34,867 bases of DNA from a virus (lineage: Duplodnaviria > Heunggongvirae > Uroviricota > Caudoviricetes). Positions 4,198-34,442 of the stretch are shown one piece after another. The stretch lies in the IMG/VR virus record IMGVR_UViG_2684622580_000006. The stretch is one strand, 5' to 3'. Both the position numbers and the translations under genes were made by a program. The stretch's first letter is position 1; each line of letters begins with the position of its first letter. The notes under the pieces are model-generated. The model made no database searches, was not told where the DNA came from, and saw nothing but the letters and a program-made list of their open reading frames with translations.

Positions 4198-4220
4198 AGG
4201 GAGTTGTTGCTCCCTTATTT
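4198..4220. terminator. Bidirectional intrinsic terminator between convergent genes
   Basis: agggag-ttgttg-ctccct hairpin followed by tatttt; lies between the stop at 4186 (+) and the stop at 4215 (-). Confidence 0.5.
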
Positions 4221-4862
4221 TACGCTCGTCCACTTAGATTCTGAGTTCCATTTACCGATTCGAGAAAAAAACGTATCTTGTTCATTTCCTTTATAACTAC
4301 GATGAACACCATCAGAAGCGTGATTTCTTGCCGATTTCTCAAGAACCTCCCAGATTGAGTTCATAACAGCTTCGGTTTCGTTTTTAGATTCATTATCATC
4401 GTATTCGATATTAACTGTTAATTTATCCATAGAACCAGTAAACAGATTAAAACTCTCTGTTAGACTGCCAGTATTCGGATTCAGAAAACAAATATCAATT
4501 TTAACGTCTGCTCTGTTCAAAGCTTTTGTTCGAATCAAGTTAATATATTCTTTTCGGATATTAGCCAGCTTAACGGTCATACCGATGTTGCTAATTTCTT
4601 TTTCTTCGCTGATTGAACTGATATCAGTAAAGTCACCAGCGGCAATATAATTTTTACCTTGATATTGCAAGTCGTAATAAGCATCAGTTAACAACAGTTC
4701 TGCGCCGTTATGCATCTTAATCTGAACAAGATGAAACAACGTGCCAACACTGAACAACTGACCAGTAGTCAGTTCAGTATAAGCAGTGCCGTTAAAATCG
4801 TTATACGCTTCGATGAAGTCGGGGTCTTTTCTCAGTCTGTTAAATTGGTCTTTTACTGACAT
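4215..4862 (-). CDS. Hypothetical protein (second gene of a minus-strand pair)
   Basis: 215 aa ORF; start overlaps the upstream gene stop by 1 nt (translational coupling); no motif I recognise. Confidence 0.6.
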   Translation of the reverse strand: MSVKDQFNRLRKDPDFIEAYNDFNGTAYTELTTGQLFSVGTLFHLVQIKMHNGAELLLTDAYYDLQYQGKNYIAAGDFTDISSISEEKEISNIGMTVKLANIRKEYINLIRTKALNRADVKIDICFLNPNTGSLTESFNLFTGSMDKLTVNIEYDDNESKNETEAVMNSIWEVLEKSARNHASDGVHRSYKGNEQDTFFSRIGKWNSESKWTSVK

Positions 4863-5437
4863 TACACCACCTCTGTTGCAGTGAGTTTAATATTTGAAAT
4901 TGATGCTAAGTCTAACGGGATAGTATCGTTCGTTAGGATGAATCGTCCTTTTGTTCCTCTGTAACTGACAGTTTCACCAGCTTGAACGTTCTGCAACAGA
5001 TTCGGAAATAGTTTCATCTCTCCACCTGCTTTGACATCCTCCGTCACGGTGTACAGCTTGGAGTGATTCTGAAACTGAACAAGTGCTCCCGCTTCTAAAG
5101 TATCTGCAAAGCTGTTCAGAGTGACCTTACGCGCTCCTTTGTTAGCTGTAACAGATGCTTGGATAAGTCCCTGAGCCGAGCCTTTATAGTCAGTCAAGTA
5201 GCTTAACGGAAAGTCAAACGGTTGACCTTGTTGATGCATCGCGATAAAGCGTTGAACGTGTCTTGTGTCCTGCGACATATAATTCACAGTGAAATTCAAT
5301 TCGAAATATTGAACGCCTGTATAACGTTTCTGAAAACGTCCTGATACTGCTCTGTTAGAGAAAAACGGAGCATTTGATTTAAGCTGAACATCGGTCAGCC
5401 TAACGTCTGTGTCTAATAGATTCATAAGTCCTCTCAT
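4862..5437 (-). CDS. Hypothetical protein (first gene of a minus-strand pair; start may be the internal Met at 5425)
   Basis: 191 aa ORF; AGAGGA precedes the ATG of MNLLDTD at 5425, whereas the ATG at 5437 has no SD. Confidence 0.6.
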   Translation of the reverse strand: MRGLMNLLDTDVRLTDVQLKSNAPFFSNRAVSGRFQKRYTGVQYFELNFTVNYMSQDTRHVQRFIAMHQQGQPFDFPLSYLTDYKGSAQGLIQASVTANKGARKVTLNSFADTLEAGALVQFQNHSKLYTVTEDVKAGGEMKLFPNLLQNVQAGETVSYRGTKGRFILTNDTIPLDLASISNIKLTATEVV

Positions 5438-6309: not shown

Positions 6310-6597
6310 ATGTTAAAAGTTACTGGTCTTGATAAGCTTCAGAAAGAACTCAAGGATGCAAAGCGTATACTGAGTGAGCTGGATGGCGAGCTAGGAGTCG
6401 TAAAGTTTAACCCTAACGACCCTGCTAGCATCGAGTCGGCAATTCAAACAGTTAATCACATGATTGATGAACGCATTGGCGGATGTTCAACCAACTCCAT
6501 AGTCGGCTCGCTTGCGCAGCAGATGAAGGAAACATACAGAGAAGGCATTCTTAAAAAAGCTGCCGAAGCCAGATTGACTTCAAGTGAGGATGAGTAA
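6310..6597 (+). CDS. Small protein (95 aa), first gene of a two-gene cargo operon
   Basis: ATG at 6310 preceded by GAAGGTG; the track ORF starts at TTG 6298; stop overlaps the next ATG by 1 nt (TAATG). Confidence 0.6.
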   Translation: MLKVTGLDKLQKELKDAKRILSELDGELGVVKFNPNDPASIESAIQTVNHMIDERIGGCSTNSIVGSLAQQMKETYREGILKKAAEARLTSSEDE

Positions 6598-7493
6598 TGG
6601 CTCAAGATATTTTTTCTGAAATGAACAATGCTGTTCTGGATTTACAGGCTTCACAATACCAGACCTTTGAACGTCCACTCAAAAAGCTTGCTCAGCTTCT
6701 AAAACATTCCGATCTTGAATCATACAATGCAGACCTGACTGAAGGACTCAATCTTACAGAGTTTCTCGCAGAAAGTGAGAAGACTGGAGGAAGTATGGCT
6801 GGGAGTGCCCAGCTTGTCTGGCCAGATGATGCAAGAAAAACACTAGGCCTTACATTACTTTTGATTTTTAAGTTAGCAGAAGATCCTAATTATGCAATCA
6901 ACTTTGGACATCATTTTTTCTATTCCGGAAGTAAAGTTATAGCAGGCATTCATTCGATTACAGGACAACTTATCATTCCTTTCGTTAGAGATTACAAAAA
7001 TTATGTTCAGTCTAAGGGAAGCACAGAAACTATGTTGAAGCCGCAGTTTTCGAACAAAGTTTTCATTGTTCATGGTCATGATGATGGCGCCCGTGAAACA
7101 GTCGCAAGGTTTCTTGAACGTATAGGTTTAGAAGCAATCATATTACATGAGCAAGCTAATCAGGGACGAACTGTCATTGAGAAAGTTATAGCAAATAGTG
7201 ATGTTGGATTTGCTGTTGTATTGCTAACACCAGATGATGAAGGTTGTGCTAAAGGAGGAATACCAGAACCAAGGGCAAGGCAGAATGTAATGCTAGAATT
7301 AGGATATTTTATCGGGCGTTTAGGCAGAGAGAAAGTATGTGCACTAAAACGCGGCTCACTAGATATTCCAAGTGATTTTGCTGGGGTTGTTTGGGAAAAT
7401 ATGGATAGCAGTGGAGGCTGGAAGCAAGCACTCGCACGAGAACTTGAAGCTGCTGGTCACAATATTGATTGGAATAAAGCAATGCGGAGTTGA
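6597..7493 (+). CDS. Protein with a C-terminal TIR-like nucleotide-binding domain (COG4271 / PF10137-like); candidate defence effector
   Basis: C-terminal segment KVFIVHGHDDGARETVARFLERIGLEAIILHEQANQGRTVIEKVIANSDVGFAVVLLTPDDEG matches the consensus I remember for the 'predicted nucleotide-binding protein containing TIR-like domain' family; the N-terminal ~150 aa are unrecognised. Confidence 0.55.
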   Translation: MAQDIFSEMNNAVLDLQASQYQTFERPLKKLAQLLKHSDLESYNADLTEGLNLTEFLAESEKTGGSMAGSAQLVWPDDARKTLGLTLLLIFKLAEDPNYAINFGHHFFYSGSKVIAGIHSITGQLIIPFVRDYKNYVQSKGSTETMLKPQFSNKVFIVHGHDDGARETVARFLERIGLEAIILHEQANQGRTVIEKVIANSDVGFAVVLLTPDDEGCAKGGIPEPRARQNVMLELGYFIGRLGREKVCALKRGSLDIPSDFAGVVWENMDSSGGWKQALARELEAAGHNIDWNKAMRS

Positions 7494-7832: not shown

Positions 7833-8372
7833 ATGGCTCGTAAAACTTATGTAAGCATGACTGAAATGGCTAAACGTTATGGTTATAGCCTCAACGCTAT
7901 CAAGAGCTGGCGTGCAGAAGGACTGCCCTACTCTGATAATCCTTCTGGTATTCCAGAAGACGAAGGCACTTTATGGATTGTTCAGAACAAAATTAACCCA
8001 ATGCGAAATATGTCCATCAAGGACGAATTCGAACGAGAAAAACTCCGTGAACAGGTGGCTAAAGCTGACTTGGCAACTTATGCAGCACAAGAAAAATCTG
8101 GTGAATTAATACCAGTGGATTATGTTCAAGCTGAGTTGAACCGTTTTTGTTCGCAACTGAAAGACAAAATCAGATTAATTCCGAAACAACACGCTTTGGA
8201 GATTCTTGAATCTGCCGTTTCAGTTGAAGAACTTCGTGATTGTCTGAAAGAGAAAATCGACCAGACGTTACGTGAGGTTGACAGTTTGTTTGAAGAACCT
8301 CAGTTACAGGACAATTCCTCAGACGAGTACAAAGAAAAGACAGAGAATGATACTGAGATTGACCTTGATTAA
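7833..8372 (+). CDS. Terminase small subunit (lambda Nu1-like)
   Basis: From the ATG at 7833 (GGAG 7 nt upstream) the product is 179 aa; N-terminal wHTH MTEMAKRYGYSLNAIKSWRAEGLPY resembles Nu1 LADIFGASIRTIQNWQEQGMPV; EREKLREQV resembles Nu1 ENEKLRREV; the track ORF is extended to 7683. Confidence 0.65.
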   Translation: MARKTYVSMTEMAKRYGYSLNAIKSWRAEGLPYSDNPSGIPEDEGTLWIVQNKINPMRNMSIKDEFEREKLREQVAKADLATYAAQEKSGELIPVDYVQAELNRFCSQLKDKIRLIPKQHALEILESAVSVEELRDCLKEKIDQTLREVDSLFEEPQLQDNSSDEYKEKTENDTEIDLD

Positions 8373-8387: not shown

Positions 8388-8600
8388 TTATCGCACAGCA
8401 CTTTTGAAGATCTGTTTCAGACGGTTGATAGAGACACGATCTGGTGAAAGATGTCGGATTTGTATACCACAATATTTCATTACATCATGATTACAAAGGA
8501 TTTGATGGCAGTTGTAATGCGATTCAACGCGATGCATCACCGTGTCCGTTCTTTTCAAAGAGCATTTGCAGTTTGCACACTGATGGTCAAATTTTGTCAT
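8388..8600 (-). CDS. Small Cys/His-rich protein (about 70 aa), possible zinc-binding
   Basis: Minus-strand ORF; ATG at 8600 preceded by GAGGAAG; TATAAATA on the minus strand at 8622-8629; product has QCANCKC and HYNCHQILCNH clusters. Confidence 0.4.
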   Translation of the reverse strand: MTKFDHQCANCKCSLKRTDTVMHRVESHYNCHQILCNHDVMKYCGIQIRHLSPDRVSINRLKQIFKSAVR

Positions 8601-8768
8601 AGATACTTCCTCTAAAACTGTATTTATACACTGTGCACAGTGATGATATATTACTATGCATGAACTTGATTTCATGCTTTATAAGTTTTATTGAGTCTCA
8701 CAAAATGATAGATTATCCTATGTGAATACAAACAGTTATAACCGACAGATTAATGGGTTGAGGACGTA

Positions 8769-9245
8769 ATGGACAATGAACTGAAAAAACTTATACACGC
8801 ATTCAGAAATGCTCTCGTTATGGCTGCGGATACACATTCATTTGGGTGTTTCAGTATGCCAAGATGGTCAGAGTTAAACAGTTTTCCACATGGTTGCTGT
8901 GACTTAGCAAGTAATTTTCTGGCTCAATATCTCACAGACTATGGATATGAGCCTGAAATAATTTGGTTTGAATGCTGCGAAGAACTAAACAAATATATCA
9001 AATCACACGTAGTTGTTAGGATTAACGATTACTATGTTGATTTAACACGAAATCAATTTGATGATCATAATGGAAGAGTATTGATTGAAGACAAATTCGG
9101 TTCCATTCCACGATTAATTAAACAAATAAAATCAATGAACTCAAATAATGTTGAGGATAGAAATATCAATATTAATACATTTAATTCAAGTGGGTATGAA
9201 CTCTACAGCTATATCAAAAAAATTGCGAATAATTTGATTAACTGA
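8769..9245 (+). CDS. Putative Cys-His-Asp fold protein (papain/transglutaminase-like), paralog 1
   Basis: 158 aa; Cys in FPHGCCDLASNFLAQYL, then SHVVVRINDYYVDLT; shares the H-x2-V-x-[VI]-x2-Y-x2-DL[ST] pattern with the next ORF; GAGGA SD; very AT-rich. Confidence 0.5.
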   Translation: MDNELKKLIHAFRNALVMAADTHSFGCFSMPRWSELNSFPHGCCDLASNFLAQYLTDYGYEPEIIWFECCEELNKYIKSHVVVRINDYYVDLTRNQFDDHNGRVLIEDKFGSIPRLIKQIKSMNSNNVEDRNININTFNSSGYELYSYIKKIANNLIN

Positions 9246-9341
9246 ATAAAATTATTTTAAAAAGGAAAAGAACCAGCATTGGAAATTTATTAAACATGTT
9301 GGTTTTATAATCGATAAAACAATCTGATTGGTGAGAATAAA

Positions 9342-9848
9342 ATGAATAATAATGAAATGAAGCAACAAATAAATGAATTGTCTTCTTATGTTCTGGACAA
9401 GACAATCAAAAAAGAGAAGGCATGTCTCTACATGAGTGCATATCTTTGCGCACTTATCAATGACAACATGAGAATAACCGCAAGATTGATTTCTGGGTCA
9501 CTTGTTATAAAAAACACTAAGATTTTCTCACATGAGCCTATACTGCCGATACTTACTTCGGGGAGCAATTATACCGGAGAATGGGATGGTCATGCTTGGG
9601 TTGAGGTCGCTGGATATATATGCGATTTATCAATCTTTTGTACAATTTTTTCAGAAAGTACATCAACTGAATTGCAGGATGTTTTCATGCAAACATTTGA
9701 TAGATACTATGAATTCTTAATCGCACCAAGAGAAAAACTAGAAGCAGCAGATATTTGCTATAAAGAATGCGAAGAATTAGGTAATGAACAAATAGATATT
9801 CTGATTCACTCAGGAATCAAATCAGGTATCTTAGTCAATCCAGAATGA
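9342..9848 (+). CDS. Putative transglutaminase-like cysteine peptidase fold protein, paralog 2
   Basis: 168 aa; KACLYMSAYLCAL (Cys), then GHAWVEVAGYICDLS, which matches the transglutaminase-like HAWxEV...D signature; stop overlaps the next start (ATGA). Confidence 0.5.
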   Translation: MNNNEMKQQINELSSYVLDKTIKKEKACLYMSAYLCALINDNMRITARLISGSLVIKNTKIFSHEPILPILTSGSNYTGEWDGHAWVEVAGYICDLSIFCTIFSESTSTELQDVFMQTFDRYYEFLIAPREKLEAADICYKECEELGNEQIDILIHSGIKSGILVNPE

Positions 9849-10567
9849 TTACAGAGGATAAAATGGAAGCAAACACTTTTATCGACCGTTTTTTTCATAG
9901 TTCTTATGAATTGACAGATTTTCGTCACGTTGGCGAACGAGACATTAACTCATTGTATACATTTCTGAATTTACTCCATTCTCTAAATGATCGTTTCAGC
10001 AAGGAATTTGGGATAGCTCAACTGGCCAAAAGGCCAGAGTTTAAATTATTACGTTTGATACGTAATTATTTTCAACATGTAGGGGATGTGGACGAATTCC
10101 GTCTATTTCAGACTCGTGATGCCATTTTGACTTCACATATGGAAATGATCATCATCCCAACAGCTTTAGTAGCTCGTGCCATCGAAAGTTTTCGAAACCA
10201 ACCACATAATAAGAAAGATCCAGTACGGGCTGAAAAAGAACTTTCATCCATTGCATCAGCTATCAGCGATTTTGAATATCTTTGTGATAATACGGATCTT
10301 TTTAGAGAAAACCCTCCTTTTCATGATACTGATAATACATATTTCTTAGGTTTTGACCTTTATAAATCCGTGTATAATATTACCAATATCGTAGCAGATA
10401 TATGCAGGAAAAGGGATGAATTTGCAATAAAAAAATGCGTTCAAGAGCTTGAAAAAGAATACACCGAAATGAATAACATACCAAAAGAAAATATATTATT
10501 ACTTGCGGGAAGTCCACCGCCACTACTAACAACCCAAGGTTTTGTGTTTCCTAAAAGGGATAGATAA
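9845..10567 (+). CDS. HEPN-motif protein (Abi-like putative RNase)
   Basis: 240 aa; contains LIRNYFQH, i.e. the R-[N]-x3-H (Rx4-6H) HEPN motif in its usual hydrophobic context; translationally coupled to the preceding gene. Confidence 0.45.
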   Translation: MITEDKMEANTFIDRFFHSSYELTDFRHVGERDINSLYTFLNLLHSLNDRFSKEFGIAQLAKRPEFKLLRLIRNYFQHVGDVDEFRLFQTRDAILTSHMEMIIIPTALVARAIESFRNQPHNKKDPVRAEKELSSIASAISDFEYLCDNTDLFRENPPFHDTDNTYFLGFDLYKSVYNITNIVADICRKRDEFAIKKCVQELEKEYTEMNNIPKENILLLAGSPPPLLTTQGFVFPKRDR

Positions 10568-10655: not shown

Positions 10656-11264
10656 TCATATTGCTTTGGTCGGCTTTGAAATTTCAATTTTCACAATTAA
10701 CAGTTCTTCGTCAAAAGATAACTTATTCCCCTTCATTACTTTTCTCATAACGCCGTTCTCATTTTCGAGAGCAGCGTTTTTTAGTTTTAAGGCTTCAATC
10801 TCCTTTCTCAATTCTTCCAATTCGTTGGTGATAACATCAACTTTCTGTTCAGTAGGAAATTCAATTTCTTCTTTAATCTCTACAAAACTCCCAACATATT
10901 GCTGAACAAAGTTATCGGTGTCTTTTTTGTGAATCATAGTCAAGTCTGAACCTAAAGCTTTCCAGTTACGACCTTCACAGCAAACGATCACAGCTTTTGT
11001 CATATCACTTGAATAAGCAACGATAGCAGGCTTGTCGTTCAGTTCTGACATACCGATTTGGAATTTACGCATATCTTTTACAGTCAACGCGTTTTCAACT
11101 TTGCTTAACATCTTTGCTCTGATGTTACGGTGAATCTCTGTAAAGCTACCGATAAAACTTTTCAGCTTGTTTCTGTTATTGGTCATTTCGTTAGTCTTAA
11201 CGATTTTTTTATTCAAGCTAACGTTAGTAGTCCCGTTCAAGTTTTCAAAGATTGAGAAATTCAT
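10656..11264 (-). CDS. Hypothetical protein with C-terminal coiled coil (possible regulator / antirepressor-like)
   Basis: 202 aa; C-terminal ELEELRKEIEALKLKNAALENE heptads; start overlaps the stop of the upstream small HTH ORF. Confidence 0.55.
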   Translation of the reverse strand: MNFSIFENLNGTTNVSLNKKIVKTNEMTNNRNKLKSFIGSFTEIHRNIRAKMLSKVENALTVKDMRKFQIGMSELNDKPAIVAYSSDMTKAVIVCCEGRNWKALGSDLTMIHKKDTDNFVQQYVGSFVEIKEEIEFPTEQKVDVITNELEELRKEIEALKLKNAALENENGVMRKVMKGNKLSFDEELLIVKIEISKPTKAI

Positions 11265-11428
11265 TATTTGATGTCCTTTTTAACAGGTTGAGTTCTGATA
11301 TTTCGTTTCTTGCAAGCGTTATATAGCGTTGCTTTGTTCATCTGTTTAGATTCTGCAATCTGCTGAAATGTCTCACCAGCATCTAGACGTGATTCGATTT
11401 CAAATTTGTTTGGAATAAACTTTGCCAT
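11264..11428 (-). CDS. Small HTH DNA-binding protein (54 aa), below the ORF-track size cutoff
   Basis: Hand translation MAKFIPNKFEIESRLDAGETFQQIAESKQMNKATLYNACKKRNIRTQPVKKDIK; resolvase/Hin-type HTH; stop overlaps the ATG of the 202-aa gene (TAATG). Confidence 0.5.
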   Translation of the reverse strand: MAKFIPNKFEIESRLDAGETFQQIAESKQMNKATLYNACKKRNIRTQPVKKDIK

Positions 11429-11451
11429 TTGGTTGCCTTTTTATGATGTTG

Positions 11452-11477
11452 AAAAAAGAGCGCTCTTGCGAGCGCTT
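11452..11477 (-). terminator. Intrinsic terminator oriented for minus-strand transcription
   Basis: Stem agcgctc / gagcgct with loop ttgc; plus-strand A-run at 11452-11457 gives a U-tract on the minus-strand RNA; sits in the leader of the HTH operon. Confidence 0.45.
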
Positions 11478-11491
11478 CAAACTTTAAGGAA
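11476..11491 (+). repeat. 16-bp direct repeat ttcaaactttaaggaa, copy 1
   Basis: Identical to 12404-12419; contains an AAGGA ribosome-binding site followed by a 7-codon micro-ORF. Confidence 0.6.
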
Positions 11492-12403
11492 TTTTTAAAT
11501 GAACTTATCGTTGTTCACATAGCTATTTTATATCGGCTATTCGATAGCGTAAACAAAGAGAGAAAACAACGAGGAGAAGAAACTCTCTATTGTTCTTCAT
11601 AGGGTATTTAGTGCCCTCACCGAAAGTGTAAGCAAAATTTTTAAAATAATTTGAAAGCAATCGGAGCAAACGTATCGATGCACTGATAAAACGCATCGAT
11701 AGCGCATCGATGCTTCTCGGCAAAGCGCATGGACCTTGAAGAAAATCGCCCTATAAGAACAATTGGATAAAGATGATATGGAAGGATATAGAAGCAGTAA
11801 ACACTACAAAACCAGATCTGAAAAACAGATTTCGCGAAGCGCGGGCGAAGCCCTAATTAATAACATTAGCGCGTAAGCGCGACAGATAGAAGTTAATCAA
11901 CATCGCTATGATCATAGATGTTGAACTTGATGATCAGTAATTATTACTAGATACGATTATTAGCGCTTCGCGCGTTCGCTACGCTCACAATATTGTTTTC
12001 TGATCATAATCAATAACTTCTAACTGCATTATAACCAGATCTGAAAACCTGATAAACTTAACTATCGTTAATTAAATCAGATAGCGTTAGTGAGTTCTCC
12101 ATCGCTTCGCTCAGTCGAACGGGCAAGCGCCGTCTTTGATAGAGATCTGGTCTTTATCGTTTTAGCTGACCTTATCGTCCCTCCTCGCTTCTCCCTGCTC
12201 TACTGACCATCTTGATACACCTTGTTCATCTATACCAGCCAAATTGAACCTGATGCACCCTGCTTTGATACCGACCTTGATTGTTGTCGCTTCGCCTGCG
12301 GCTCGCTTACCACCGTTATTGAATCGGACCAATAGAGATTCCTAGTTTACTAAATACAAGCGTGATTCAGAGAAACATCTGAAAGTCAACACTTCTATTC
12401 AAA
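11492..12403. other. About 0.9 kb non-coding, repeat-rich region (candidate ncRNA, iteron origin, or insertion remnant)
   Basis: No credible ORF; three GCATCGAT palindromes at 11676-11716; two aaccagatctgaaaa repeats (about 11810 and 12035); several CGCTTCGC-like motifs. Confidence 0.4.
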
Positions 12404-12419
12404 TTCAAACTTTAAGGAA
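12404..12419 (+). repeat. 16-bp direct repeat ttcaaactttaaggaa, copy 2 (RBS of the homing endonuclease gene)
   Basis: Identical to 11476-11491; immediately precedes the ATG at 12427. Confidence 0.6.
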
Positions 12420-12426
12420 ACTCAAA

Positions 12427-13041
12427 ATGTACAAAAGAACTATCAACAACGTAACTTACAAAACCCGTTCTGAACTGGATACTGAGCCAACCGGATTCAG
12501 CGTTTATAAAACCGTTTTCAGTATCAACAATGAATCATTCGTTTATTACGGCAAACAAGCTTTCAACGGTCAGCCTGATATGTCGTATATCGGTTCTGGT
12601 CGCAGAGTTCAGGAAAAACTCGCTGAAATGACCGAGTCAGATATCGTTTATAAAATCGTTCTACAGAATTTTGAATCAGAACAAGAAGCGTATGACTTCG
12701 AATCTGAATGCATTCAATCAGCACGCAAATCGAAGGTTAATATTTTAAATATATCTAAAGGAAACTCCGGTGGTAAGGTCTTTGACAAAATGACAGAAGA
12801 ACAAATTAAACAACGTAACGCGAAAATCTCTATGAGCATGATGGGTCACGAAGTCTCTGATGAAACTCGTCGTAAAATCTCAGAAGCGAAATCTGGTCAG
12901 ACTCGCTCTGATAATACGAAACAAAAAATCGGTGATGCTCTGCACGGTCGCAAAACTGGACCTAAATCAGAAGAAACCAAACGCAGAATGTCAGAAGCAC
13001 ATAAAGCACGTCACGCTAACAAGGAGACAGCGAATGTCTAA
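12427..13041 (+). CDS. GIY-YIG homing endonuclease with NUMOD3-like repeats (Seg / I-TevI-like)
   Basis: 204 aa; N-terminal GFSVYK...FVYYGKQ...YIGSGRR (GIY-YIG spacing) and C-terminal repeats HEVSDETRRKISEAKSG / SEETKRRMSEAHK typical of NUMOD3. Confidence 0.75.
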   Translation: MYKRTINNVTYKTRSELDTEPTGFSVYKTVFSINNESFVYYGKQAFNGQPDMSYIGSGRRVQEKLAEMTESDIVYKIVLQNFESEQEAYDFESECIQSARKSKVNILNISKGNSGGKVFDKMTEEQIKQRNAKISMSMMGHEVSDETRRKISEAKSGQTRSDNTKQKIGDALHGRKTGPKSEETKRRMSEAHKARHANKETANV

Positions 13042-13285
13042 AACTCAGCAGTTTCTAAGACCTGTTATCGTTGCGCTTGTTGTCGTAGGAGGTTGCGCTA
13101 TTGAATCGTGTAGCAGCACAGTATCAAAAGAATCGATTATAAAGCGTGACATCATATGCGCAAATCAGGAGTACAATCCTAAAACTGCAAAGCATGACAT
13201 TGAAATGTGCCGAAAGGGATTCAACAAAAAAGGGAGCATCAGCTCCCTTTTATCATTTAAATCCATGAACCAGCAGCTGCTCTAA
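13034..13285 (+). CDS. Small lipoprotein (83 aa), candidate superinfection-exclusion or spanin-like protein
   Basis: ATG at 13034 preceded by AAGGAG; signal peptide MSKTQQFLRPVIVALVVVGG followed by the lipobox Cys (VVGGC); the track ORF 12860-13285 is an artefactual upstream extension. Confidence 0.6.
   Translation: MSKTQQFLRPVIVALVVVGGCAIESCSSTVSKESIIKRDIICANQEYNPKTAKHDIEMCRKGFNKKGSISSLLSFKSMNQQLL
13226..13253. terminator. Bidirectional terminator hairpin gggagc-atca-gctccc embedded in the 3' end of the lipoprotein ORF
   Basis: 6-bp stem flanked by an A-run (13226-13231) and a T-run (13248-13251); for the minus strand it sits right after the stop of the 59-aa ORF. Confidence 0.45.
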
Positions 13286-13500: not shown

Positions 13501-13528
13501 GAAAATGGGAGCATTAGCTCCCATTTTT
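13501..13528. terminator. Intrinsic terminator downstream of the minus-strand HTH gene
   Basis: atgggagc-atta-gctcccat hairpin flanked by aaaa and ttttt. Confidence 0.5.
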
Positions 13529-13929
13529 CATTGTGAACCTCCATTTGTTTTATTGGTACAGCGTAAAAACTGATCGCGTATATACGCTTTTGATTTACCT
13601 GTCATTCGCTTACCGAATTCAATGAAATCTCCTTTCGTCTGACGATAAACAATCAAACTGATTTCAGAAGGTTTTTTGTGAGCACTATTTGATGCTAGCT
13701 GTTTTTCAATGTTCGGGATTTCTGATTCTTTAACTTCACCAGCTTCAATTTCAGAAGCAATAACTTCCTCTTCAACTGGCTTCACAGTGTATTTTTCAAT
13801 ATTTGCTTTAACGCGACGAACAACAGAGCGGGAAACTTCAAATTGTTCAGCAATCTTACGTTCTGATAAATCTGTTCCTGCGTTAATCATTGCAGCTATT
13901 TTATTTTCGATAGTCGGTTCAGTTTTCAA
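13528..13929 (-). CDS. HTH DNA-binding protein (133 aa), divergent from the large terminase gene
   Basis: N-terminal HTH AGTDLSERKIAEQFEVSRSVVRRV; TTG start with GGAG 8 nt upstream. Confidence 0.55.
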   Translation of the reverse strand: MKTEPTIENKIAAMINAGTDLSERKIAEQFEVSRSVVRRVKANIEKYTVKPVEEEVIASEIEAGEVKESEIPNIEKQLASNSAHKKPSEISLIVYRQTKGDFIEFGKRMTGKSKAYIRDQFLRCTNKTNGGSQ

Positions 13930-14039
13930 TTCGATGTTCTCCGTGTTGAGATGGATTGAACTTTAACAATCCAGGTCCGAGGTGCAAGCGTCCTGAAAAT
14001 TATTTGTTGGATTCTTCATAAATACACTCAGAGGTGACT

Positions 14040-15923
14040 ATGAAAAGTATCAACAAATTAAAGAAAATCATTAAAGCATCAAAAATTTTTATCATGCCTC
14101 CTGCTGATTACACGCCGTCAGAATGGGTCGAACAGAACTTAATCTTCCCTGATGGACCATATGCGGATCAGCCAATGCGACTTTTTGAGTTCCAGCGCGG
14201 AATGATTGACGCTATCAAAGGCAATAAGAAGAAAATCGTTCTTATGACTTCTGCACAGATCGGCAAAACGACGATTCTGAACGGTGTTCTGTTCTATAAA
14301 TCAGCTATAGATCCAGGCAACGCGGGTGTTTTACAGTCTACAGCGAAAGAAACGACACAATGGTTATCAGGTAAAATTAAACCGATGATTGATGCATCGG
14401 AAGAAATGCAGAAAATCGTTACTGATAAAAACGACAGAAATGCAGTTAATAACACCAGTCAGATTCAGCTACGAAATGGTGGTTTCTGGTATTTCATGAG
14501 TTTGAACTCTCCTTCTCACTTGCGTGGTAAAACTCTGCCATTGCTTCTGCTTGATGAAGTTGATGCTGTCGATACTGATACAGAAGAAGGCAACCCAATA
14601 ATGATTGCCGAACAGCGTGCAACAACTTTCGGTTCAGACGCTCGAATCTTTATCAGTTCGACGCCTACTGGCAAATACGGTGCCATCAATACTCAATACG
14701 AAGCATCCGATAGACGTAAATTCCATATCGATTGTCCTCATTGTGGTCGTTCTCATGAACTCGTTTGGGAAAACATTAAATTCGATTGGATTAAACATGA
14801 TGGTAAATCAGTACCAGATCCAGAAACTGCGCGTCTTGAATGTCCTTCTTGTAATGAAGCAATCTCAGAAGCACAACGAGCAAGAGCATTAGCAAACGGT
14901 AATTGGATTGTGACTAATCCAGAAGCTGATACAGCAGGATTCCATGTAAGTCGTTTATACAGTCCTATGAGTTCAATAAAATCTGTCGTTCAAGATTTCA
15001 AAAATGCTTATCAAACATTCAGTTTGTCAACGTTCTATAACACCGTATTAGGTCTGCCTTTTGATGATCTGAACGAGGATGTGGAAATCAGTAAATTAAA
15101 CGAACTGAAAACTGATATCAGTATCAGAAATATTCCAGAAGATTGTCTTTTCTTAACTGCGGGTGTTGACCAACAGCAAGACCGTTTAGAAGTAACCTTG
15201 ATGGGTCACAACGAACGAACCGTTTATATTCTTGCACATCGTAGCTTTATGACAATGAACGCTGAGGTTATCGATTCCCCTGCTTATAAAGAACTTCTTG
15301 CATACGTTAAAGCACCGTTCAGAACAGCTTTGGGAAGAAAGGTTCCTTTAGCGTGGGTGAACGTCGATAGCTCAAACGGTCGAGCAACTAAAACAATCTA
15401 TCGTTTCTGCTCTCAGTGGACAAACCTGAAAGCAATTAAAGGTGCCAGCTCAGTTGATGCCCCTTATGTTCCAACGAAAATCACGAAAACCGGTGGTTAT
15501 GAACTTTATATGATTGGTGTAAACCAAGGAAAAAACTTAGTTCGTGAACTGCTAAACAGAAGCGTGAAATCTGGAAATACACCAGTCAGAGTCGAAATCT
15601 CTGATGATGTTCCAGATGATTACTGCGAACAGCTTATGTCCGAAGAATTAAAACGCTCTGGCAATACTGTTAGATGGGTTATTAAACAAGGCGGTGTTCG
15701 TAACGAAGGTCTTGACTGCTTTAACTACGGTTATTGTGCGCGTCTGCAAGTTCTAGAGAAAATCAAATTTCACGAGTGGAGGAAACTCGCTGCTAAATCT
15801 GATATTGAAATGCCAGAAGAACAAAACGAAACAAATTCTCCTGTTATTCAAACTCCTGAACCACGTCGAAACATTATCAAACGAAACAGACCAGTTAATA
15901 AGCCTCGTGGTTTCGGATTATAA
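14040..15923 (+). CDS. Terminase large subunit (lambda gpA family)
   Basis: Walker A-like SAQIGKTT; FHIDCPHCGRSHELVW...ECPSCNEAI aligns to the lambda gpA zinc-ribbon region FHVACPHCGEEQYL; NEGLDCFNYGYCARL aligns to gpA NEALDCFVYALAAL; ATG 14040 with a GAGGTG SD (track start is GTG 14034). Confidence 0.9.
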   Translation: MKSINKLKKIIKASKIFIMPPADYTPSEWVEQNLIFPDGPYADQPMRLFEFQRGMIDAIKGNKKKIVLMTSAQIGKTTILNGVLFYKSAIDPGNAGVLQSTAKETTQWLSGKIKPMIDASEEMQKIVTDKNDRNAVNNTSQIQLRNGGFWYFMSLNSPSHLRGKTLPLLLLDEVDAVDTDTEEGNPIMIAEQRATTFGSDARIFISSTPTGKYGAINTQYEASDRRKFHIDCPHCGRSHELVWENIKFDWIKHDGKSVPDPETARLECPSCNEAISEAQRARALANGNWIVTNPEADTAGFHVSRLYSPMSSIKSVVQDFKNAYQTFSLSTFYNTVLGLPFDDLNEDVEISKLNELKTDISIRNIPEDCLFLTAGVDQQQDRLEVTLMGHNERTVYILAHRSFMTMNAEVIDSPAYKELLAYVKAPFRTALGRKVPLAWVNVDSSNGRATKTIYRFCSQWTNLKAIKGASSVDAPYVPTKITKTGGYELYMIGVNQGKNLVRELLNRSVKSGNTPVRVEISDDVPDDYCEQLMSEELKRSGNTVRWVIKQGGVRNEGLDCFNYGYCARLQVLEKIKFHEWRKLAAKSDIEMPEEQNETNSPVIQTPEPRRNIIKRNRPVNKPRGFGL

Positions 15924-31687: not shown

Positions 31688-32050
31688 ATGTTACGTCGCG
31701 GATTATCTAACGAAGAAATTCAACAGATGTCCGTAATGATGTATTATGAATTATGGTTTTTCGATTCGTTTATTGAACCACAAAGTCCTGTCTATAACGA
31801 TTTCTATCAAGCTCGATTGATTCACACTATCGAAGCAAATAACCCGAATCTGACCAAAGAGTACAGGAAAAAGTTGAACATGAAAGACCATCAGCTTATT
31901 AAAGATTCTGTGTTTAAGTCTCAAGAAGAAATCGAAAAAGAGAAAGAACAACAGGAGATTAAACGTAAGAAAGCTATTGAATCGATGTTCGACCCAGCTC
32001 TGTTAGATAAAGTTAAACTGAGAAAAACAAAAAAGGTGAATAATGGCTAA
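31688..32050 (+). CDS. Tail assembly chaperone C-terminal extension (gpT-like), probably expressed as a G-T fusion
   Basis: 120 aa ORF in the -1 frame relative to the chaperone ORF; no ribosome-binding site upstream of its ATG; overlaps the tape measure start by 8 nt. Confidence 0.5.
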   Translation: MLRRGLSNEEIQQMSVMMYYELWFFDSFIEPQSPVYNDFYQARLIHTIEANNPNLTKEYRKKLNMKDHQLIKDSVFKSQEEIEKEKEQQEIKRKKAIESMFDPALLDKVKLRKTKKVNNG

Positions 32051-34442
32051 ATCACGTTATGACGTTGAGATTAACGGAGATAACAAAGGCCTTTCAAAAT
32101 CTATTGATAAGTCTATGGAGCAACTGAACGAACTTGATTCGGTTGCTAATGGACTTTTTAGTAATATGACAGGACCGTTGAATAATCTCAACAGTGGAAT
32201 ATCAGGTATTGCAGGAATGTCCTCGGGTATGCAAGCTCTGGGGATTGCAGGAATGGCAGCAGGTGTAGGTGTCGCCGCTCTTAATACCGCTTTAGAAAAA
32301 ACAAGAGAACTTAATCAGATCTCTACGTCAACTGGACTTTCAGTTGAATATCTGCAACAGCTTCAAAAAGAATTTCGCACTACAGGAATGGAAATTGACC
32401 GATTCGGGGATCTTAACAAAGATACTCTCGACCATCTCGGTGATTCATTCAGAGAAGGCGCAGGTGGTATTGGTGATGACCTTGAAAAATGGGGTATTGG
32501 TCTTGAGCGATACACTCAATATGTTAACGACGCTGAAGGCGGTATTAAAGCACTTGTTCAGACGTATTATGACCTGAAAAAAGCTGGTGCAAGTCAAGCT
32601 GAAATCGTTAACGGAATGGAGTCTATGGCTTCTGACGGTTCTCACTTGATTACTGTTCTTGAAAAATACGGCTCAACTCAAGAAGCATTAAACGCTATCA
32701 ATAACCAATCAGCTAGTATTACAAACGAAACAGCAAGAGAATACCAAGGATTCGATGAAAACATGAAAACGCTTTCGGTGAACTTGGATAATTTAACTGT
32801 TAACGTTATGGGTCCTCTCGTTTCGAAAATGAATAATCTTTATGATATTGCGAATAAAGATTGGACAGCTAGTAATATCCTCGATTTCTTTACTAAGATT
32901 GATAGCTTACGTCCTGATAAGATGTTAGCAGATTGGGCGGCTGACACAGTTGTTGATGCTTACGCAGACGCTAATCCTACTTCTGGCGCAGGTCAACGTA
33001 AACAGCAAAAAGATTATCTTGATACGACAGAACGTTTTCTGAAACAGACCAAAGCTCAAGGCGATAAAGCTTATGAAAAACGTAAGCAAGACGAAATAAC
33101 ACGAGCGAAGTTACAGAAACAGCGTAATGAGAAAGCCGCTGAGGATGCGAAAAAAGAAGCTGATAAAGCTAAACGCGAAGCTGACAGAATAGCAAGAGAG
33201 CAAGAACGCGCTGGGAAAGAAAAGCTACGCTTACAGGAGCAAGCCGCAAGAGAATCTAAAGCTGCTTACGATAAGATGATGCAAGAAAGGGAGACAGCGT
33301 TACAGAGTCTTTCCAGTCTTGATGCTGCAATTCTGAGTCAAGAAGGTCGCACGATTTCAAATCAGGTTAGTCAAGTTCAACAGGCTATTAAAACTATCTC
33401 AGAACTTGAGAAAAAAGGAATTATCTCCGCTGAACAGGCTAAGCAACGTCGAAACATGCTGTTTAAAACATCTAATGCAGAATTTAAACAGACTCTTATG
33501 ACGAGTCCTGAAGAAATTGGAGCAATCACGACAAGTCTTGAAGTTGTATATCAGCAACAGCTTGAACAACTCGAAGCGAAGAAAGCCCAGTCGTTAATCA
33601 GTCAGCAAGAATACAACACACAGGTTGAAGCATTACAGCAAGACCATCAGTCACGTCTTGAAGCTATTAAAGCAACGAGCGGTGACGGTAATATGGCTAA
33701 TATGAAAAATCTCAGTGCGTTGGGTTTTGCAACTGACGAAGAACAGATGGCTATTCAACAAGCCGCGTTAGATGAACAATTTCAGAAAATGCGTGAACAG
33801 AACCAGAAATTATATGATGGTCAGTTAATCAATCACGAGCAATTCCTGCAACAGAAAGCACGTCTTGACCAAGCGTATGCCGCGAAGTCGAAACAAATTA
33901 CTTTCTTGGAAACTCAGACGAAACTCCAGATGTATAACGGGTTGGCTTCTGGTATGGGTTCAATAATCGCTGGTATCGCAGGTGAAAGTTCGGACGCTGC
34001 TCAAGCTGTATTTGCTATTCAGAAAGGAACAGCAATCGCAAGCGGTATGTTAAACGCTTATGAATCCGCGACTGCTGCAATGGCTAAATATCCTGGTCCT
34101 ATGGGTTACGCTATGGCTGCTTCAAGCTATGCGCGTGTTATCGGACAAGTCTTGCAGATGAAATCAGTGAATATTACTGGTATGGCTCACGATGGTATTT
34201 CAGAAGTGCCAAGAGAAGGGACATGGTTGCTTGATGGTGGCGAACGTGTTGTTGATGAACGCACTAACGGCGACTTAAAAGAATTCTTAGACAATAACAA
34301 AATAGGAGAAGCAACAAAAATCGATGCAAGTATTCACGTAAATGGAAATGTTACTGATCAGCGTTGGTTTGCTGAACAATTAAAACGTCAGCAACAGAAC
34401 ATCGCGGCTATTGTGCAAGACTGCAACAGACGCAAGATGTAA
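32043..34442 (+). CDS. Tail tape measure protein
   Basis: 799 aa, alpha-helical; Gly/Ala-rich hydrophobic segments (GIAGMSSGMQALGIAGMAAGVGVAAL; GLASGMGSIIAGIAG); long charged coiled coil (KAAEDAKKEADKAKREADRIAREQERAGKEK); follows the G/GT pair. Confidence 0.75.
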   Translation: MAKSRYDVEINGDNKGLSKSIDKSMEQLNELDSVANGLFSNMTGPLNNLNSGISGIAGMSSGMQALGIAGMAAGVGVAALNTALEKTRELNQISTSTGLSVEYLQQLQKEFRTTGMEIDRFGDLNKDTLDHLGDSFREGAGGIGDDLEKWGIGLERYTQYVNDAEGGIKALVQTYYDLKKAGASQAEIVNGMESMASDGSHLITVLEKYGSTQEALNAINNQSASITNETAREYQGFDENMKTLSVNLDNLTVNVMGPLVSKMNNLYDIANKDWTASNILDFFTKIDSLRPDKMLADWAADTVVDAYADANPTSGAGQRKQQKDYLDTTERFLKQTKAQGDKAYEKRKQDEITRAKLQKQRNEKAAEDAKKEADKAKREADRIAREQERAGKEKLRLQEQAARESKAAYDKMMQERETALQSLSSLDAAILSQEGRTISNQVSQVQQAIKTISELEKKGIISAEQAKQRRNMLFKTSNAEFKQTLMTSPEEIGAITTSLEVVYQQQLEQLEAKKAQSLISQQEYNTQVEALQQDHQSRLEAIKATSGDGNMANMKNLSALGFATDEEQMAIQQAALDEQFQKMREQNQKLYDGQLINHEQFLQQKARLDQAYAAKSKQITFLETQTKLQMYNGLASGMGSIIAGIAGESSDAAQAVFAIQKGTAIASGMLNAYESATAAMAKYPGPMGYAMAASSYARVIGQVLQMKSVNITGMAHDGISEVPREGTWLLDGGERVVDERTNGDLKEFLDNNKIGEATKIDASIHVNGNVTDQRWFAEQLKRQQQNIAAIVQDCNRRKM

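Follow-up and report, generated by a model that had tools for sequence, protein, structure and literature searches.

A conserved gene-free region in an enterobacterial prophage lineage: a predicted leftward leader-terminator unit beside a candidate iteron origin

The sequences GCGNAGC and GCGNNAGC form extraordinarily stable DNA mini-hairpins, and such mini-hairpins occur at the primase start sites of G4, St-1 and alpha3, in ssiA of RSF1010 (CCGAAGG) and at the early promoters of N4 (Hirao and colleagues, 2026 review, PMC13037366). The replication origin of plasmid RSF1010, oriV, consists of RepC-bound iterons followed by two single-strand initiation signals, ssiA and ssiB: these are 40-nt hairpin-forming inverted repeats, placed on complementary strands, and they start the synthesis of both strands in leading-strand mode (PMC8567376). 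Here we analyse a region that can be compared with these origins, feature by feature. It lies at about positions 11,452 to 12,419 of the IMG/VR virus record IMGVR_UViG_2684622580_000006, a temperate phage of the Caudoviricetes; the whole stretch of 34,867 nucleotides is referred to as the window.

Regulatory RNAs of temperate phages offer a second point of comparison, as the c4 RNA of P1/P7 targets the ant mRNA (PMC12197685). Altogether, the region is most likely the conserved main cis-acting control region of a temperate phage lineage, composed of a unit for leftward transcription (unit A) and of a second unit (unit B, about 11670-12300). Our preferred reading, suggested by its architecture and held tentatively, is that of an iteron origin with ssi-type priming hairpins, resembling oriV of RSF1010, joined to an attenuated leader.

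A gene-free gap conserved across the lineage

Homologous loci were gathered through the large terminase (TerL) from IMG/VR, metagenomes and exact-protein look-ups. All relatives found, down to 61% TerL identity, have a gene-free gap of 1.0-1.7 kb in this place. In nhmmer comparisons, 11 distinct versions of the gap are homologous and constitute family 1: the window, L005, L006, L007, L009, L012, L180/L193, L194, L189, L191 and L195, which come from E. coli, Enterobacter, Kluyvera and metagenomes. A second group of relatives (L014/L178, L181, L182, L192 and L196) has a gap of 1.1-1.7 kb at the same position, free of open reading frames (ORFs) or at least of genes, with no detectable similarity to that of the window. 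Since the gap is present in all relatives found, between an operon of small helix-turn-helix (HTH) and coiled-coil genes and the genes that precede TerL, it is a hallmark of the whole lineage. It can also be better kept than its flanks: in L009, patches of the gap have 80-85% DNA identity, against 30-42% protein identity for p202 and HTH54, the two products of that operon.

The absence of a credible ORF, claimed by the original prediction, is borne out: none exceeds 66 aa in 11429-12426, and the micro-ORF and other short ORFs are not kept in relatives. Substitutions between the gap and three relatives have no 3-base periodicity, which the neighbouring p202 gene does have. The region is thus truly non-coding. 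Two candidate genes were rejected: a 25-aa hydrophobic minus-strand ORF (ATG at 11600), whose frame shifts in L005 and L007 and whose ATG is missing from L012, and the MIWKDIEAV ORF (plus strand, 11773), found in only three clades. RefSeq annotates nothing within the gene-free stretch in the E. coli genomes that carry the element.

With a G+C content of 39.7%, equal to that of the window (39.5%), the region is distinguished by its repeats and not by its composition. The stretch has no blastn match among isolated phages, in near and distant modes, nor among plasmids (PLSDB), and a pattern scan with AGCGCTTCGCGCNNTCGCT over genome contigs returned chance matches in high-GC genomes only.

The predicted leftward promoter-leader-terminator unit

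Unit A covers 11451-11553, plus an upstream start at 12028-12055. Its elements, and the genes on which they may act, are the following.

10656-11428, minus strand: leftward operon of a 54-aa Hin-like HTH protein, HTH54 (11264-11428), and a 202-aa coiled-coil protein, p202 (10656-11264).
11451-11476, minus strand: intrinsic terminator, with the stem-loop AGCGCUC-GCAA-GAGCGCU at 11459-11476, then U6.
11453-11518, minus strand: predicted leader RNA or small RNA (sRNA) of about 65 nt, from P3 to the terminator, with inferred ends.
11476-11491, no strand assigned: copy 1 of a 16-mer; the minus-strand RNA reads UUCCUUAAAGUUUGAA, a perfect antisense of the endonuclease ribosome-binding site (RBS) region (copy 2).
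11525-11553, minus strand: promoter P3, predicted, sigma-70-type (TTTACG, 17 nt, TAAAAT).
11605-11632, minus strand: possible third promoter P2, weak (CTTACA, 16 nt, TAAATA), within a direct duplication of about 78 bp of the GTTTGTTTAC block.
12028-12055, minus strand: promoter P1, predicted, sigma-70-type (TTTATC, 17 nt, TATAAT after re-alignment with relatives).
12283-13219, plus strand: homing-endonuclease cassette, present or absent among relatives; its extent is defined against L007, which is without it.
12366-12383, within the cassette: hairpin upstream of the endonuclease ORF.
12404-12419, within the cassette: copy 2 of the 16-mer.
12427-13041, within the cassette: GIY-YIG/NUMOD3 endonuclease ORF.
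13034-13285, counted with the cassette: small lipoprotein-like ORF.

A consensus promoter scan of the minus strand returned TTATCA-16-TATAAT (12055-12028) and TTTACG-17-TAAAAT (11553-11525). The latter, P3, is found in 10 of 10 aligned variants, always with a 17-nt spacer; the column identity is 92% in the -35 box, 69% in the spacer and 93% in the -10 box. P1 is present in nine of 11 variants, with a 17-nt spacer in all nine (98%, 55% and 100%, respectively), and is replaced by unrelated sequence in L189 and L195. The duplication that contains P2 corresponds to families D1/D4/D5 in relatives.

The minus-strand terminator that had been noticed at the left edge is indeed there, its stem-loop at 11459-11476 next to a T-run at 11451-11458. 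In L007 and L191 one stem pair changes in a compensatory manner (G-C to A-U) and the loop changes from GCAA to UUCG. Both loops are stable tetraloops of the RNA type only when read on the minus strand. Its U-run ends 22 nt before the ATG of the HTH54 gene, which leaves no room for a promoter: HTH54-p202 would be transcribed by read-through only. The same layout of a strong promoter, a 30-65-nt leader, a tetraloop terminator, an HTH gene of about 57-60 aa and a coiled-coil gene recurs in L014 and L182, whose gaps are dissimilar to that of the window. This promoter-leader-terminator unit is the best-established part of the region.

P3 and P1 would both fire into the single terminator that precedes HTH54-p202. 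Most transcripts would then end as untranslated RNAs, of about 65 nt from P3 and of a predicted length of about 565 nt from P1, and the HTH54-p202 operon would be expressed by the fraction that reads through.

The shorter RNA may have a target of its own. The window of 34,867 bases contains exactly two copies of the 16-mer TTCAAACTTTAAGGAA, one at 11476-11491 and one at 12404-12419, on the plus strand in both cases; no third match exists at up to two mismatches, and none of 100 dinucleotide shuffles gave two or more matches. As originally described, copy 1 is followed by a 7-codon micro-ORF (ATG AAC TTA TCG TTG TTC ACA TAG, 11499-11522) and copy 2 by the endonuclease ATG at 12427. The similarity of the two copies stretches to 29 nt at 83%, with the ATG included in both. 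To call the region bracketed by the repeat is misleading nonetheless: copy 1 is part of the leftward operon's leader, and copy 2 is part of the endonuclease cassette.

The predicted fold of the leader RNA in the window, L005 and L009 comprises a 5' hairpin (GUGAAC/GUUCAU), about 22 unpaired nucleotides that hold the antisense of copy 1, and the terminator hairpin with its U-tail. L007 has a different 5' hairpin in the same place; for L012 no 5' hairpin is predicted and the seed falls inside a weak predicted hairpin. The seed is thus unpaired in four of the five variants folded. The first G.U pair of this 5' hairpin is replaced by A-U in L189 and L195; the pair of the window would be an A.C mismatch on the plus strand, so that the minus strand is favoured.

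The unpaired segment, UUUAAAAAUUCCUUAAAGUUUGA, is antisense to the endonuclease start region (copy 2). Their complementarity is perfect over 16 nt in the window and over 11-13 nt in relatives, in every variant that carries the endonuclease. The duplex of leader and endonuclease start has a predicted energy of -24.7 kcal/mol in the window and of -18 to -25 kcal/mol across lineages, compared to -8.4 +/- 2.4 for shuffled targets; no other good target of the leader RNA was found within the window. Both copies read CTTTAAGG in the window, L005, L006, L009, L189 and L195, and both read CTTAAGG in L012, L180 and L194. The start region is quite different in distant NUMOD3 endonuclease paralogues that lie elsewhere in related phages, and an IMG/VR search with the endonuclease returned the same prophages only.

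These observations fit a trans-acting antisense control of endonuclease translation: the unpaired middle of the short RNA would pair with the RBS of the endonuclease mRNA (copy 2) and hold down its translation. Several points weigh against such an action of the short RNA on the endonuclease. The co-variation of seed and target amounts to a single indel event in two clades, and in L191 the two are off by one base. Covariation supporting the sRNA structure, over 10 sequences, is no better than in shuffled controls. Copy 1 varies little or not at all among the 10-11 family-1 relatives, even in L007, where there is no endonuclease; silencing of the endonuclease is then not its only role. Moreover, the 16-mer is similar to strong ribosome-binding sites of the T7 gene-10 type, which have an enhancer upstream, and part of the likeness of the two copies may stem from that.

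Phased repeats, strand-switched mini-hairpins and the readings they allow

Unit B, with the DNA around it, contains the following elements.

11670-11734, no strand assigned: iteron-like array of four direct repeats RCGYATSGAY, at 11670, 11691, 11702 and 11725; it contains the GCATCGAT motif of the original prediction.
11747-11763, no strand assigned: conserved block CGCCCTATAAGAACAAT, within a 68% A+T stretch (11736-11832) that is purine-rich on the plus strand.
11833-11880, plus strand: cluster of three mini-hairpins with G-N(N)-A loops, CGC-GAA-GCG, GGGC-GAA-GCCC and GCGC-GTAA-GCGC.
11881-11958, no strand assigned: spacer of 78 bp, 69% A+T, with two TGATCA sites; hairpin polarity and the purine strand both switch here.
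11963-11984, minus strand: mini-hairpins GCGC-GAA-GCGC (11963-11973) and GC-GTA-GC (11978-11984), the most conserved block of the region.
12104-12302, minus strand: further hairpin cores, GCGAAGC at 12104-12110 and 12289-12295, GCC-GCA-GGC at 12294-12302.
12178-12199, minus strand: conserved tract, pyrimidine-rich on the plus strand; the minus strand reads AGCAGGGAGAAGCGAGGAGGGA.

The short repeats first noticed in the region are all present: GCATCGAT at 11693 and 11704, its reverse complement ATCGATGC at 11674 and 11706, AACCAGATCTGAAAA at 11810 and 12033, and GCGAAGC/GCTTCGC at 11834, 11845, 11965, 12104 and 12289, which makes five of the nine copies of the whole 34.9-kb window. All six GATC sites of the region lie in AGATCT (three) or TGATCA (three), those at 11810-11824, 12033-12047 and 12143-12150 among them; their placement may be related to Dam/SeqA.

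The four repeats of the array are spaced by 21, 11 and 23 bp, that is, in helical phase. Relatives have three to five copies, differing by steps of 11 or 21 bp: L191 has 21-bp tandem units, L194 an extra 11-bp unit, L189 and L195 three copies. The array core is a variant, GCATCGCAAA, in L012 and L180. L009 has in addition four copies of GGTGCC(C), spaced by 10, 20 and 11 bp, for which the locus contains no complementary partner. The helical phasing, the stepwise changes in copy number and the partner-less direct repeats together speak for a protein that binds double-stranded DNA. In L014, L181 and L182, the dissimilar gaps have arrays of their own, with three to seven repeats: at least six copies of TGTGCAACGTTG in L014, four to six copies of a 28-bp unit in L181, a 21-bp tandem pair and one inverted copy in L182.

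Mini-hairpins with 4-bp GC-rich stems and 3-nt loops occur at 3.7 per kb in the gaps and at 0.26 per kb outside them (15 loci). Their loops in the gaps are nearly all GAA, GTA, GCA or the complements, while those outside are random. The stems of the plus-strand hairpins covary, from GGGC/GCCC in the window to TGGC/GCCA in L005, GCGC/GCGC in L180 and GACGC/GCGTC in L009, and the loops differ only within G-N-A or G-N-N-A (GAA, GTA, GTAA). The CAGATCTGG elements differ in position by lineage; they replace a GCGAAGC hairpin in the window and in L009.

The strand of the hairpins switches along the gap. In all nine family-1 gaps, three to five plus-strand hairpins lie on the left and the minus-strand hairpins on the right. 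L182 has the same clean switch; L181 mostly fits, with one out-of-order minus-strand hairpin upstream of its single plus-strand hairpin. The order of modules (leader, iterons, plus-strand hairpins, minus-strand hairpins) is common to family 1, L181 and L182. Inside the spacer, an imperfect palindrome at 11897-11924 covaries in L005; as L007 and L012 do without it, it is not essential.

As far as architecture alone can tell, unit B is most likely a replication origin. The four phased iterons would bind an initiator and the adjacent A+T-rich DNA would open, exposing the G-N-A triloop DNA mini-hairpins: those of the plus strand to the left of the 78-bp spacer, those of the minus strand to its right. 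The hairpins would act as single-strand initiation (priming) signals, like ssiA/ssiB in oriV of RSF1010 and hairpin I for DnaG at the G4 origin. The plus-strand hairpins would prime leftward synthesis and the minus-strand ones rightward synthesis, both outward from the spacer. The scenario in its full extent is distinctly unlikely: a lineage without recognisable replication genes, whose iterons open the DNA, whose opposed G-N-A hairpins recruit the host primase, and whose leader RNA silences the endonuclease.

Of the three ideas put forward originally, that of origin iterons is the one favoured, by the phased repeats, their 11- and 21-bp copy steps, the strand-switched hairpins and the recurring module order; what it lacks is a recognisable initiator gene. 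More generally, no replication protein (initiator, helicase or primase) is recognisable in the element of about 34 kb with Pfam, PHROGs and NCBIfam, and the structure model of p202 has no fold match. This and the following observations weigh against an origin. The types of HTH54, p202, the small terminase (TerS) and HTH133, a further HTH protein of the element, do not track the array types, so that co-variation did not single out an iteron-binding protein; L180 combines HTH54/p202 of the window type with an array of the L012 type. The region has no DnaA boxes. With the weak P2 about 30 bp downstream of it, the array could be a mere operator or activator array. Hairpin polarity is mixed in L196 and in DCP80, an isolated-phage record. 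The hairpin stems contain only G-C and A-T pairs, and a role at the RNA level is possible. Compared to a window average of 60.5%, the A+T content is 68% in 11736-11832 and 69% in 11881-11958: the spacer exceeds the average by only about 9 points, and no repeats of the 13-mer type are kept across relatives. Finally, the local purine/GC skew is opposite in sign to the one usual for replication from an origin.

Pure transcriptional control without an origin is possible, if on the unlikely side. Here, HTH54-p202 would be governed by leftward promoters in tandem, by the CGCATCGAT repeats as an operator or activator array, and by an attenuating terminator. This would be akin to PR'-6S-tR' of lambda, whose promoter-proximal terminator is passed only with the help of an antiterminator, or to the leader-based immunity of P4 or of P1 immI; the GC hairpins would be sites of RNA processing, stability or protein binding. 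The promoters and the terminator are the best-supported elements of the region, and the layout of promoter, leader, terminator and HTH gene is kept across families of dissimilar sequence. The array stands about 30-95 bp upstream of P2/P3 and its repeats are partly inverted, with compensatory changes in L012. The predicted fold of the minus strand is better than for shuffles (z of -5.2 for the whole region, -3.9 for the P1 RNA), and a switch based on RNA or termination is plausible as no CI-type repressor is recognisable. Other observations oppose this reading. Because the G-N-A loops are on opposite strands, a single transcript would have half of them as U-N-C loops, and no conserved rightward promoter was found upstream of the plus-strand cluster. 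P1 is the sole promoter from which a transcript through the hairpins would start. L189 and L195 are without it but retain the hairpin clusters, and even have them duplicated, which points to a role independent of the P1 transcript. The partner-less fourfold GGTGCCC of L009 speaks for DNA sites and not RNA helices, and an operator region of about 1 kb would be very large. The loss of P1 in two of 11 variants, together with the canonical intrinsic terminator that the P1 transcript meets, also led us to reject an RNA-primed origin of the ColE1 type.

The remaining alternatives are less likely than either of these. The region could be the packaging site (cos or pac) of a phage with a gpA-type terminase, the repeats being small-terminase sites, as in cosB, and the GC-rich cluster the cleavage region; we consider it improbable. 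The large terminase is indeed of the lambda gpA type, known to cleave at cos; the genes of the small terminase (7833-8372) and the large terminase (14034) lie on either side of the gap, and the HTH of the small terminase and the array core GCATCG are both kept within family 1. L014 and L181, however, have near-identical small-terminase HTH regions and quite different arrays. The gap is also 1.1-2.6 kb away from the large-terminase gene, with other genes between, its central palindrome is not kept, and cos sites are not known to have strand-switched mini-hairpins. The record of DCP80 begins with an equivalent gene-free stretch, possibly a physical genome end; as this record looks chimeric, its start is uninformative, and genome ends deduced from it were dropped.

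A single large structured RNA of 700-950 nt, of the GOLLD/ROOL kind, is very improbable. The region is conserved, gene-free and repeat-rich, minus-strand terminators flank it in L007, its local hairpins have compensatory changes, and the folding score of the minus strand given above would suit such an RNA as well. Against this, the covariance-model scan that had been proposed yielded no Rfam match in the whole window at gathering thresholds, and relaxed thresholds gave no family either (GOLLD, ROOL, HEARO and group I intron included), only sub-threshold chance matches with E up to 10. In L005 and L007 the long-range inverted repeats I8 and I9 are disrupted, and RNAalifold gave seven sequences a covariation term of about zero. 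Internal promoters and lineage-specific indels of whole modules do not suit one RNA, and the helically phased direct repeats point to DNA-protein contacts. The proposal of a structured non-coding RNA is not supported for one large molecule; what is predicted is the two minus-strand RNAs of unit A. A search for tRNA and tmRNA gave nothing real.

Finally, that the 16-bp repeat is an insertion scar, a duplication of the target site or start region by the endonuclease cassette or by the whole 0.93-kb segment with a decaying interior, is hardly credible: the direct repeat is perfect, with an RBS and ATG in both copies, and a mobile endonuclease gene adjoins, but the endonuclease indel (12283-13219, relative to L007) is not flanked by the repeats (11476, 12404), L007 keeps copy 1 and the whole 0.8-kb interior without the endonuclease, the interior is kept in 11 variants with promoter-like and hairpin-specific constraints, and no relative among those examined is without the 0.93-kb segment.

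Prophage setting and comparison with known systems

The window is a prophage of about 34 kb that sits between ybiT (ABC-F ATPase) and ldtB in E. coli. The same element is found in seven of 5,426 complete E. coli genomes, MS 115-1 among them, and is always single and chromosomal. Large-terminase proteins at 57-100% identity occur in E. coli, Citrobacter, Enterobacter, Kluyvera, Pantoea and Serratia. The prophage encodes a large serine integrase, a lysozyme, a TIR-domain protein (CAP12/Pycsar-effector-type, 6597-7493), the small terminase (7833-8372, true start near 7833) and the gpA-type large terminase (14034-15923), followed by the portal, protease-capsid and tail genes. No CI/Cro-type repressor, holin or antiterminator gene is recognisable in it, though the element bears an integrase and occurs across several enterobacterial genera.

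The tail genes are split. Those of the distal tail protein and the hub (DUF2163), at 4215-5437 on the minus strand, stand beside the serine integrase, while a tape-measure-like gene (32043-34442, plus strand) is at the far right end. In DCP80 (L188, 14463-18118) the homologues are collinear, in the order tape measure, Dit, hub and tip fibre. The integrase/attP cassette is therefore seemingly inside the tail operon of the window, or an inversion has occurred. DCP80 (PQ671644.1; L001/L002/L188) is the only close record among the isolated phages of the collection searched, with 52% TerL identity; it is filed as a T4-like Gaprivervirus of 141 kb and appears to be a chimeric assembly. Its first 25 kb or so are a relative of the prophage structural module, the remainder T4-like genes (motA, rIIA, ndd, topoisomerase). 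The gene-free stretch at its start is 1.29 kb long, without ORFs and with many G-N-A mini-hairpins.

Between the small-terminase gene and p202 lies a cargo hotspot. In the window (8388-10567) it holds four unknown ORFs of 95, 158, 168 and 240 aa, in L007 (947-2716) a 589-aa ORF, and in L189 (995-2795) an AAA_21/AAA_15 ATPase with an HNH protein, which has the look of a defence pair. In strain 2017.06.05CC (L186, 28228-29456; NZ_AP027790.1) an IS3-family element splits the protease-capsid gene, and this copy of the prophage is probably defective.

HTH133, a 133-aa protein (13528-13929, minus strand) divergent from the large terminase, has a weak GntR/HTH_11 match and is also weakly similar to sigma-70 region 4 chains (E 0.5-0.8). 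Its HTH is kept across family 1, and it could be a late-gene regulator or repressor. In the second group of relatives (L014 5385-5873, L182 5368-5874, L192 6419-6976) an HNH_3 endonuclease gene lies directly upstream of the large terminase, as is typical where HNH proteins assist cos cleavage; in family 1 the GntR-like HTH gene takes this place. At 13222-13259 a GC hairpin stands between an A-run and a T-run (AAAAAAGGGAGC...GCTCCCTTTT), as a two-way terminator for the lipoprotein-like ORF and a 59-aa minus-strand ORF; the sub-threshold Rfam hit STnc320 is merely this hairpin.

The region would work like two known things, an IncQ-type origin and a promoter-proximal terminator unit whose leader gives a regulatory RNA. 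It is placed in neither family: for the origin, no cognate replication proteins were found, and the RNA is a predicted one. Like oriV of RSF1010, the region has direct repeats with a period of about 20 bp in three to four copies (21-bp tandem units in L191), DNA somewhat rich in A+T and candidate hairpin signals on complementary strands, arranged as an inverted pair; CCGAAGG of ssiA belongs to the same G-N-A class as its hairpins (PMC13037366). RSF1010 differs in that it encodes its initiator RepC, helicase RepA and primase RepB', none of which is recognisable in the prophage, in that it has one 40-nt ssi per side in place of several short hairpins, and in being a plasmid and not an integrated phage. 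No similarity of sequence was found between the region and any PLSDB plasmid.

The DnaG primase origins for complementary-strand synthesis of G4, St-1 and alpha3 and the G4-type ssi signals of plasmids have hairpins of the GCGNAGC/GCGNNAGC type at their priming sites (PMC13037366), and hairpins of this type occur in the region. The host primase would suffice for priming of the G4 type, which fits the lack of a recognisable phage primase. G4-type origins serve one strand of a single-stranded genome, whereas the prophage has a double-stranded genome with candidate signals on both strands. If the reading as an origin is true, a whole enterobacterial prophage lineage replicates without recognisable replication genes, and the extra-stable GCGNAGC mini-hairpin, linked until now to the origins of single-stranded phages and to IncQ ssi sites, gains a role in a double-stranded temperate phage. 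The module order that recurs in dissimilar gaps would give a simple signature for finding such origins in unannotated prophages. Were the region only a transcriptional switch, it would still be the control point of an uncharacterised prophage family with neighbouring defence cargo (the TIR protein and the AAA/HNH pair).

Unit A resembles PR'-6S-tR' of lambda in its constitutive-looking promoter, its predicted short untranslated RNA, its intrinsic terminator and its downstream genes that depend on read-through. Unlike in the lambda-type units, neither a Q-like antiterminator nor processing signals were identified here, and the downstream genes are two small genes and not late genes. The predicted leader RNA shares with c4 a stretch of complementarity to a ribosome-binding region, and the CI RNA of P4 is likewise derived from a leader. 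The presumed target here differs: it is a homing-endonuclease gene on the opposite strand, at a distance of about 0.9 kb.

For this last aspect the closest systems are I-TevI and the seg/mob endonucleases of T4. The RBS of T4 homing endonucleases is occluded in cis, by a hairpin of the same mRNA. The RBS would be the control point of the prophage endonuclease too, the complementary sequence being placed on a separate RNA. We found no description of antisense control of a free-standing homing endonuclease in the literature searched; if the proposed pairing takes place, the leader RNA is an example of it, with the RBS controlled in trans where T4 controls it in cis.

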